From the NCBI GenBank assembly GCA_019057475.1, contig DXJO01000027.1, positions 36,174 through 100,173 of the forward strand: DNA of 64,000 nucleotides, given 5' to 3'. The position numbers and the translations under genes were made by a program. This document shows, one piece after another, positions 5,563 through 49,169 of the stretch. Each line of letters starts with the position of its first letter. The stretch's first letter is position 1. The DNA is from Candidatus Thorarchaeota archaeon. Its GTDB lineage: Archaea; Asgardarchaeota; Thorarchaeia; Thorarchaeales; Thorarchaeaceae. The notes under the pieces were generated by a model. It did not search any database, was not told where the DNA came from, and saw nothing but the letters and a program-made list of their open reading frames with translations.

Positions 5563-5874
5563 TGTCCTTCGGGATACCGCCTCGCGCTGTTAGTTGATAC
5601 GCCGTTAACGAGATTGATGTCGTAAGTTACGTTTCTTTGCGTGCACCTATCTCAACCGTTCATTGTAGGTTGTACAAAGTTGGACACCGAAGTCTAGTAC
5701 GTCCAGGAAACGGCACTGGACTACTCCGTGAGGACCCTTCACAGGTGTGTCATATTCCTCAGAGACCAATGTCGTATTGGTCTATATAAAGCCCACAATA
5801 AAATTGTCCAGATACGTCTAACTTTGCAGCAGCTATTTGCAACCCTTAATATACTATGAAAATTGTTTAACTAA

Positions 5875-5962
5875 GGGTCCGGATGCAGAAGGGTTACATA
5901 CTCTCCCCCCTCCTAACCACGCGAATACCTACTTTCTATTTTCCTTCTGCGTTCGAAACCCC
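5875..5962 (+). ncRNA. Candidate ~88-nt structured small RNA, copy A
   Basis: 13-bp plus 4-bp terminal stem with G-U pairs on the + strand. TTAATA box 29 nt upstream. Shares two 13-nt motifs with 48935-49024. Confidence 0.55.
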
Positions 5963-7647: not shown

Positions 7648-7754
7648 TGGTGGACCGGGTGGGATTTGAACCCACGACCTTCTGGAGTTTTGATCTCCTG
7701 AGAGATCCAGAAGGATTGCAAACCAGACGATCTGCCGGGCTAATCTACCGGCCC
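7648..7754 (-). tRNA. tRNA-Ala(UGC) with a 30-nt intron at 37/38 (7687-7716) and encoded CCA
   Basis: Acceptor stem GGGCCGG/CCGGTCC with G3-U70. Anticodon arm TCTGG-TTTGCA..T-CCAGA; T arm GTGGG-TTCAAAT-CCCAC. Positions 32-35 (UUUG) pair with intron CAAA as in a bulge-helix-bulge motif. Confidence 0.92.
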
Positions 7755-44558: not shown

Positions 44559-45268
44559 ATGGCAGATATAATCGGGAGAATCATGAAAGACGCGCTTGCA
44601 GGTGAGGATGCCAAATACTCCATTGAGCGCGACGATGGCAATGTGCGGGACGACCTAGGGCGGAGCTATCTTGACCCATTTCCTGAGTGGCCAGAGGGAG
44701 AGCGTCAAGCGATTGTGCACGCTAAGGGGAGTGTCCTGGATATTGGTTGTGGAGCAGGAAGAGTGATGCTCTACCTAAGGGAACAGGGTTACGCCACGGT
44801 TGGTGTCGACATATCACCGGGTGCTGTTGAGGTCTGCAAAAATCAGGGACTAGTTGATACTCATGTAATGTCGGCTGAGAATTTGAAGTTCAAACCCAAC
44901 ACGTTCCACACGTATTGCTATTTGGCGGCAATTTCGGAATCCTAGGGGAGGAATCGAGAATCATCAAGATGTTGAAAGACCTCCATCGAATTACAGCCCC
45001 GGATGCCATCATTTTAGCATCGTCTAGAGATCCCGAAGCCACTGATGACCCTGCACACTTGAAGTATCATGAATGGAACAGGGAAAGACAGCGCCCAGTG
45101 GGGTTGGTCAGAATCAGACTGAAATACAAAGATGAGATAGAAGATTGGTGGGAACTCTTGCTGGCGAGCCCTGAAGATATGAATAGGCTGGCACAACAAG
45201 CAGGTTGGACCCTAGATAGAACGTTTGGGCCACAATATCTCTACGTGGGCCTTCTTCGAAAGGAGTAA
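44559..45268 (+). pseudogene. Class I SAM-dependent methyltransferase split by a 1-nt frameshift near 44912 (or sequencing error)
   Basis: ERDDG and VLDIGCGAG lie in the first frame; LFGGNFG and the C-terminus lie in the second. Adding one base joins them (..HT-V-LLFGGN). Confidence 0.75.
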
Positions 45269-48329: not shown

Positions 48330-48767
48330 CTAGACTACCGCGATATCATATGAGAGATGAACCGGGCATTTCATGGAATTGGATACTACGCAATACCTGT
48401 GCGCTCTCTCGGCTGCCTTCTTCATTTTTTTCTTGTCTTTCTCGGTCGGCACAGTGATCCGAACTGATAGTGAGATCTTCTCAAACTCCCAACCGAACTC
48501 GCCTTGTTTGAGGTTCCCCGATGCCTCAATCTCGAAGCCGGTGAAATCCGCGTGGAATCGCTTCGCAACACCTGTGAGCGATCCACCATAACAAGACACA
48601 GCAGATGCTAGAAAGAGGTCCTCAGGAGAGAGCGTACCAGGTGGAGACTCTGGCCAAAAGTCAAGAGGAGTAGCCACTTCGAGTTCAGATTTGCCCTTTG
48701 GCGATATTGATACAATCTTATCTCGGACCCACTTGCTGGTCAACTCGTAGTGATGCTCATCAGACAT
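48330..48767 (-). CDS. OsmC family protein, tandem paralogue
   Basis: Motifs SPEDLFLAS..SC and AHRYC.VSNS. Confidence 0.85.
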   Translation of the reverse strand: MSDEHHYELTSKWVRDKIVSISPKGKSELEVATPLDFWPESPPGTLSPEDLFLASAVSCYGGSLTGVAKRFHADFTGFEIEASGNLKQGEFGWEFEKISLSVRITVPTEKDKKKMKKAAERAHRYCVVSNSMKCPVHLSYDIAVV

Positions 48768-48934
48768 TATTGGTTCCTCGAAAAACGATGCTCAAGACCC
48801 CCCTCAAGAGGGTTCCGTTATGGCAAGAAAATCGATGCATTTCAAGGTATAACGGAATGCAACTCAATCGGGGGTATAGGTTTCTCAATGACTCTGACGG
48901 TAGGGCTTATTAGGGAGCAAGTTACATTATACCT

Positions 48935-49024
48935 TGGTGGTTTGGGCCAGCGGGGCACCTATTTTCTATACATGCCCTCATAACTCCCCCCTCCTACCAG
49001 TTGTCCTACTGGTTCAAGCCACCA
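48935..49024 (+). ncRNA. Candidate ~90-nt structured small RNA, copy B
   Basis: About 22-bp terminal stem with five G-U pairs; TTATTA 28-29 nt upstream; T5 tract downstream; shares motifs with copy A. Confidence 0.55.
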
Positions 49025-49169
49025 CCTCATTTTTCCAATGCAACTGGTTTCAAGAGCACAGGCGATTCTTGGTTAAGATAATGGCATCAAGTCTGTTTGA
49101 AATAAATCCCCCTGAGCAATACTTTATGAGAGAGTGGCTATCTCAAAGCGGCAACGTGGTGGAGAATTG

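Follow-up and report, generated by a model that had tools for sequence, protein, structure and literature searches.

The hairpin element studied here, copy B, belongs to what is apparently a conserved and undescribed family of small-RNA genes (the B family), whose members of about 95-150 nt were found with a covariance model in all 33 Thorarchaeales genomes searched. We consider it very probable that the family is a functional RNA gene, in which a closing stem of variable sequence carries a near-invariant C/U-rich loop that includes the anti-Shine-Dalgarno (anti-SD) sequence. Copy B is encoded on the plus strand of the window (the whole stretch of 64,000 nucleotides that was analyzed), within a 366-nt gap flanked by two divergent OsmC-like genes on one side and by a DUF6989 membrane gene on the other. 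The preliminary description of copy B missed the multi-copy and order-wide status of the family, as well as the complementary 5' domain of its long paralogs.

The covariance model, built from 17 copies, matched 32 of the 32 genomes of the window's family and the one genome of the sister family, and none of 117 other Asgard genomes. The number of matches varies from one to eight per genome, and the window's own genome contains five intact and two decayed copies. Exact-pattern matches in GTDB came nearly all from bins titled Thorarchaeota or from other, including related, archaeal bins; in the non-Thorarchaeota matches that were examined, the stem and the remainder of the loop were absent. Viral contigs searched with three patterns gave no match. 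Within the window, Rfam 15 returned only one tRNA at the gathering score, and over positions 48800-49150 it returned nothing up to an E-value of 10. The literature searched contained no paper on the B family and no account of regulatory small RNAs in Thorarchaeota. Two side observations concern other parts of the window: on the minus strand, a tRNA match of 104 nt (7651-7754) probably contains an intron, and a class I methyltransferase (44559-45268) is apparently split into two overlapping frames, by a frameshift or an assembly error.

The closing stem of copy B joins a 5' arm at 48936-48957 to a 3' arm at 49002-49023, both on the plus strand, by 16 Watson-Crick pairs, five G-U pairs and one C-A mismatch, as had been read from the sequence at the outset. 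The 101-nt element folds at z = -4.67, and none of 200 shuffles was equally stable. Across the copies the stem comprises about 16-23 pairs, with variable sequence and preserved pairing. In the alignment of type-1 copies, the type to which copy B belongs, 94.7% of stem cells are paired, compared with 27-53% in slid controls, and two-sided (compensatory) changes occur at 10 of the 20 stem pairs, a level matched by none of 500 shuffles. The plus strand is fixed as the functional one because G-U cells outnumber A-C cells there by 58 to 9 across the 17 aligned copies. This covariation and the G-U bias bear out the earlier proposal of a plus-strand small RNA selected at the RNA level, with an anti-SD loop conserved on a variable stem.

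The surroundings of the stem have the anatomy of a gene. A TATA box (TTATTAG, 48907-48913, plus strand) precedes the stem by 28-31 nt, a distance that is kept in 11 orthologs despite unrelated spacers, and TATA-like words occur 20-34 nt upstream in 76% of 41 type-1 copies. Adjoining the TATA box on its upstream side is a conserved AYGGTRG element (48897-48903, plus strand), possibly a BRE or a regulator site, with a similar motif at the matching position in seven of the 11 type-1 orthologs compared. The RNA is predicted to begin at about 48933-48936, and the stem is followed by ACCU and a pyrimidine/U tract (49024-49034, plus strand) that is the likely 3' end and terminator; similar tails are found 3' of most copies. 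The TTATTA at 48907 and the T5 at 49030 reported earlier are thus both present. The divergent OsmC-like gene (48330-48767, minus strand; PF02566) marks a conserved locus: an OsmC gene lies upstream in 42 of 64 type-1 copies, a stable synteny, and copy B is the ortholog at this locus. From features that are established (gene-like anatomy, strand, conservation of structure, distribution and invariance of the loop), we infer transcription here, and pairing, targets and repression below. As judged from sequence, the intergenic location with its own promoter and terminator suggests that copy B would be transcribed on its own, as a trans-acting RNA about 95-100 nt long. Of two RNA runs considered, one yielded nothing; the other, from a cold seep, contained four of the 19 family words, and a 725-nt contig crosses the element at a depth of 7.8, equal to that of the neighbours; because it may represent DNA and looks like read-through at the neighbours' depth, this contig is not evidence of expression.

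The loop of copy B is about 44 nt long, C/U-rich and near-invariant, and is built of four modules that include AUGCCCUCA and the anti-SD CCUCCUA; both loop motifs noted earlier, at 48957 and 48979, were confirmed. In the family as a whole the loop measures 44-55 nt, of which about 40 bases are near-invariant. All modules are given here on the plus strand. The U-rich M1 (48958-48969) has the consensus UUUUC(U)GUAA, of which copy B is a variant. The near-invariant M2 (ACAUGCCCUCA, 48970-48980) is exact in 139 of 156 copies, as counted in a search anchored on the M2 motif with two changes allowed. M3 (AACUC(n)UCC, 48982-48994) has a C-run of varying length and is predicted to be unpaired (0.88-0.96 on average), and M4 (UACCA, 48995-48999) is kept in at least 140 of the 156 copies at each position. 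The anti-SD core CCUCCUA (48990-48996) is identical to the 3' tail of the 16S rRNA gene of the window's genome, and its predicted single-strandedness in 90-99% of copies indicates that the motif is exposed. Several lineages have acquired extra hairpins, only ever between modules, and therefore the modules appear to act as separate elements.

The accessibility of the modules differs among the types of copies. The loop of type 1 is open; in types 2 and 3 a short insert pairs with M1, which forms the 5' strand of an inner helix, and raises M2 into an inner hairpin loop. Two alternative inner hairpins had been proposed as a possible switch of motif exposure. Both do appear in the predicted fold of copy B; however, they are not universal, since, depending on type, 61-79% of copies have GGGC, and the CCAG/CUGG hairpin is confined to type 1 (41% of copies), being absent from types 2 and 3. 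In its predicted fold, copy B can also have M2 sequestered by the inner end of the 5' arm, an alternative that is common but not universal. The suggestion of an anti-AUG at a fixed spacing from the anti-SD did not hold, as this arrangement is not maintained in the commonest paralog type.

Coding potential offers another way to read these conserved bases, either as an SD-led minus-strand ORF or as an ORF from the AUG within M2. The minus strand can be read as SD plus AUG, the plus-strand AUG CCC UCA is near-invariant, and the minus-strand ORF of 19 aa described earlier is indeed present in copy B. Its peptide is not conserved, however: the ORF ranges from 7 to 42 aa in orthologs and is absent from type 2. 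The plus-strand reading comprises three codons and a stop in type 1, changes frame elsewhere and shows almost no synonymous change, and the promoter and the G-U pairs point to a plus-strand RNA. We therefore regard a small peptide gene as extremely improbable. A tRNA-like reading (CUCAUAA plus 3' ACCA) was rejected, as the RNA has no 5' half for pairing and type 2 lacks CUCAUAA.

A second element of the window, copy A (5875-5962, plus strand), had been joined with copy B into one family with motifs in swapped order. We find that it represents an RNA family of its own, present as a single copy at a distinct conserved locus. Copy A scores E 0.24 with the B covariance model, and their resemblance is confined to the C-rich anti-SD core UCCCC(C)UCCUA(A)CCA; the swapped-motif reading falls because the second supposedly shared motif is the variable end of the B loop, and the order is not conserved. 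The orthologs of copy A have an invariant loop of their own, with the core CCCCUCCUAACCACGCGAAU, and often lie downstream of a TFIIB-zinc-ribbon gene. The TATA box of copy A is closely preceded by a roughly palindromic motif of about 27 bp (5820-5847) that recurs several times per genome in the genus, a possible transcription-factor site. As a separate observation, a repeated non-coding element with TTCGAACCTCCCTCCTACCAC and an anti-SD/ACCA core, having no family stem, occurs on two small contigs of genome G000, C10 (L266) and C14.

Type-1 synteny is accompanied by a different behaviour of types 2 and 3, whose copy number is variable and whose sites are scattered. Within type 2, a subgroup whose members have nearly identical promoters and 5' extensions is found in many unrelated, accessory-looking contexts (L346, L347, L357, L366, L380, L417 and others), suggesting recent spread on mobile DNA. 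It is known that tRNA and tmRNA genes serve as integration sites, and similarly a tyrosine-integrase element of about 24.7 kb in genome G012 has inserted in one family gene, which it splits within M1 (the crossover site), a single case. The host 5' arm is left at one end of the element, and the loop and the matching 3' arm at the other. Unlike the tRNA/tmRNA case, in which a 3' end is restored, the G012 element brings a separate whole copy with its own stem, a complete RNA gene that lies some 70 bp in from the left end of the element. The element loci on contig C119 are L465:1348-1582 and L466:10933-12224; just upstream of the probable start of the integrase there are two additional TGCCCTCA repeats, and most of the element genes tested have no Pfam match. 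The scatter of types 2 and 3 and the targeting of one copy by this element could be taken to mean that the family is no RNA gene but a DNA-level element, either a mobile repeat or a recombination site. Such an origin is very unlikely in view of the strand-specific G-U pairs, the TATA box at a fixed distance, the U-rich tail and the position of type 1 beside OsmC; moreover, integrase homologs adjoin only one locus of several hundred, and no viral contig matched.

Long paralogs differ from copy B, which lacks this domain, by a 5' domain between the TATA box and the stem, with only 44% pairwise identity. Despite this divergence in sequence the domain keeps a G-rich site complementary to M3/M4, followed after 2-10 nt by GGG or GG(C/U)AUG, which is complementary to M2. 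The complementarity of the 5' extension exceeds that of its own shuffles in 39 of 46 dereplicated long forms, and the real motifs outscore 30 of 30 double-shuffled motif sets as well as the swapped order. A pattern of site a plus GGG is present in 25 of 25 long forms against 0.8 in shuffles, with the pattern fitted on these related sequences; owing to this relatedness and to the discovery of the pattern by eye, these statistics overstate the complementarity. The direction of the two-site complementarity is consistent in two different 5' architectures. We read the 5' domain as a putative built-in partner mimic that resembles an SD site and then a start region, and the domain gives a direct, testable prediction of the binding partner of the loop.

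The same domain could instead complete a compact, pseudoknotted RNA in the long form, in which the GGG of the 5' hairpin kisses M2 and the G-rich arm exchanges onto M3/M4; copy B and other short forms would then have long siblings or a different small RNA as their partners in trans, within a sibling or sponge network. This GGG is kept in the long-form 5' hairpin and is predicted to be unpaired (0.76), the two 5' architectures share the same two-site complementarity, and genome G000 contains both long and short forms. However, the sister-family copy shows no G-rich 5' domain, and among non-coding sites the 5' domain of a sibling does not stand out as a partner of the loop. These observations leave the pseudoknot and its network improbable. 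The loop must be under some other constraint, since its side does not covary with the 5' domain.

Messenger RNAs were considered as partners of the loop in the window's genome, where SD sites are in use: GGAGG has its peak at -12 to -16, and strong starts amount to 22% compared with 4% in controls. Predicted loop pairing with start regions is stronger than with coding controls by -2.4 kcal/mol, and sites below -20 number 52 against 12. This preference is due entirely to M3/M4, with M1 and M2 adding none, and it only equals the best of 25 shuffles. Bipartite sites are about three-fold commoner at starts (34 versus about 11), and starts show no enrichment of GG(G)CAUG. Targets among mRNAs therefore do not account for the invariance of M2. 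Genomic SD flanks track the 16S tail, not the C-run of the RNA. The best loop-mRNA duplexes genome-wide do not exceed those of shuffled loops, and no specific conserved mRNA target was found for the loop despite its general start-region preference. Among individual candidates, the top M2 mRNA keeps its complementarity within the genus only, the other top trans candidate has no clear orthologs, and the neighbouring genes were rejected as cis targets, including the OsmC-like gene, whose start region pairs weakly.

Stable RNAs fared no better as partners. No antisense match above chance was found to 16S rRNA, 23S rRNA, SRP RNA, RNase P RNA or 5S rRNA, and one 16S antisense site was rejected because it varies. 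A collinear 7+7+7-bp duplex can be drawn with 23S rRNA positions ~679-710, and the RNA might accordingly be a guide or chaperone for this region. The duplex is no better than those of shuffled loops, of which 50-60% are as good, the 23S site changes in two genera in which M2 does not, and the alignment contains no C/D or H/ACA boxes; this role is largely refuted and, in our judgement, highly improbable. Two side observations touch on rRNA. A TATA-led segment upstream of tRNA-Sec in G000 (contig C42; L472:1030-1170) contains a 17-bp complement of 23S rRNA that is found in the genus only, and the 16S rRNA genes of this genus (L269 and L278, in genomes G009 and G024) have insertions within helix 45 or immediately 3' of it, ahead of the anti-SD tail, which are possible introns or expansion segments.

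The main rival to base pairing with messages is that proteins recognize the loop (of the Lsm/SmAP or KH type, or factors of small-subunit maturation or initiation), with the 5' domain only gating access; in a variant, the loop is possibly a decoy for the 3' end of 16S rRNA. Recognition by a protein or the ribosome would better explain why about 40 nt are invariant without covarying targets. M1 is rich in U, and the genome has genes for three Lsm-family proteins. In addition, (UC)GUAACA and CCUCCUA recur in the same order in the consensus loops of types 1 and 3 and in the final 50 nt of 16S rRNA (P < 0.01 in a post hoc test), although copy B and type 2 lack an exact GUAACA and the test was chosen after the match had been noticed. 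The preserved complementarity of the 5' domain points instead to base pairing, and no partner protein was found. We judge recognition by proteins or the ribosome less likely than not, though with an appreciable chance.

Our preferred reading, which we hold at somewhat less than an even chance, is a broad masking of SD sites in which the long siblings are self-masked. The loop mirrors the sequence with which the ribosome docks mRNA, and it therefore probably acts on translation starts. The long end-to-end stem would protect the RNA and keep the ~44-nt C/U-rich loop open, and the loop would act through short, split base pairing: the anti-SD sequence of M3/M4 would pair with purine-rich, SD-type sites, with possible assistance from M2, whose partner would be a GGG(CAU)-like sequence located 2-10 nt further downstream. 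Such pairing could block 30S loading on many SD-led messages rather than on one target. Long paralogs with their cis-encoded partner mimic may be self-masked or switchable, and short forms like copy B would be open. Against SD masking, the ~40 near-invariant bases far exceed the 9-nt loops of the bacterial cuckoo RNAs. A wider scheme, which we put forward as a speculation with perhaps a modest prospect of being right, is an order-wide Asgard system in which the invariant loop would act globally on initiation or the small subunit, with open and mimic-locked siblings, and would matter enough for an element integrating into the gene to bring a replacement copy.

Several known RNAs resemble the B family in part. 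Y RNAs and vault RNAs have an end-to-end stem, a pyrimidine-rich loop, a U-rich tail and several paralogs, all of which are shared by the B family. Assignment to Y RNA was rejected: Ro60/TROVE (PF05731) was found in none of 61 family genomes, the variable stem has no conserved bulged helix, and there is no Rfam match. Assignment to box C/D or H/ACA guides was likewise rejected, as the alignment contains no boxes and the rRNA duplex is neither above shuffles nor covarying. The C-rich loops of RsaE/RoxS in Firmicutes also carry motifs for SD pairing, as the B family does. Further Firmicutes RNAs, the multicopy LhrC (PMC4132741) and RsaA (PMC3961350), are similar in their sibling genes and unpaired C-rich motifs for SD pairing. 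In contrast to LhrC, RsaA and RsaE, the B family has a different architecture and no defined targets, and there is no sequence or model match between them.

The closest parallels are the cuckoo RNAs of Alphaproteobacteria (RSs0680/CcsR, alpha-r14), in which two to four small hairpins lie side by side, with a CCUCCUCCC loop of 9 nt (PMC4615179). Like the B family they are multi-copy, with variable covarying stems, an invariant anti-SD loop and partial synteny (PMC4615179). The B family differs from them in being archaeal and in having one end-to-end stem, a four-module loop of 44-55 nt and paralogs with a complementary 5' domain; adjacent CCUCCUCCC hairpins are not found in it, the family having a single closing stem and the loop core CCCCCCUCCUACCA. 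An archaeal example is sRNA162 of M. mazei, in which a single-stranded region masks a ribosome-binding site (PMC3510493). This RNA pairs with a specific neighbouring mRNA (PMC3510493), whereas the neighbours of the B family are not predicted targets and its loop is a generic anti-SD. Cuckoo RNAs (PMC4615179) and sRNA162 (PMC3510493) provide a precedent for SD masking. Some 40 near-invariant bases, in several copies and in all searched genomes of the order, represent a conservation at the level of housekeeping RNAs, and the invariant core could serve to mark Thorarchaeales in metagenomes. If the family works as predicted, it would provide a global RNA control of SD-led translation, with unusual self-masking, in close prokaryotic relatives of eukaryotes. 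In its predicted mode of action the B family is most like the cuckoo RNAs, the C-rich sRNAs of Firmicutes and sRNA162, and it belongs to none of them.
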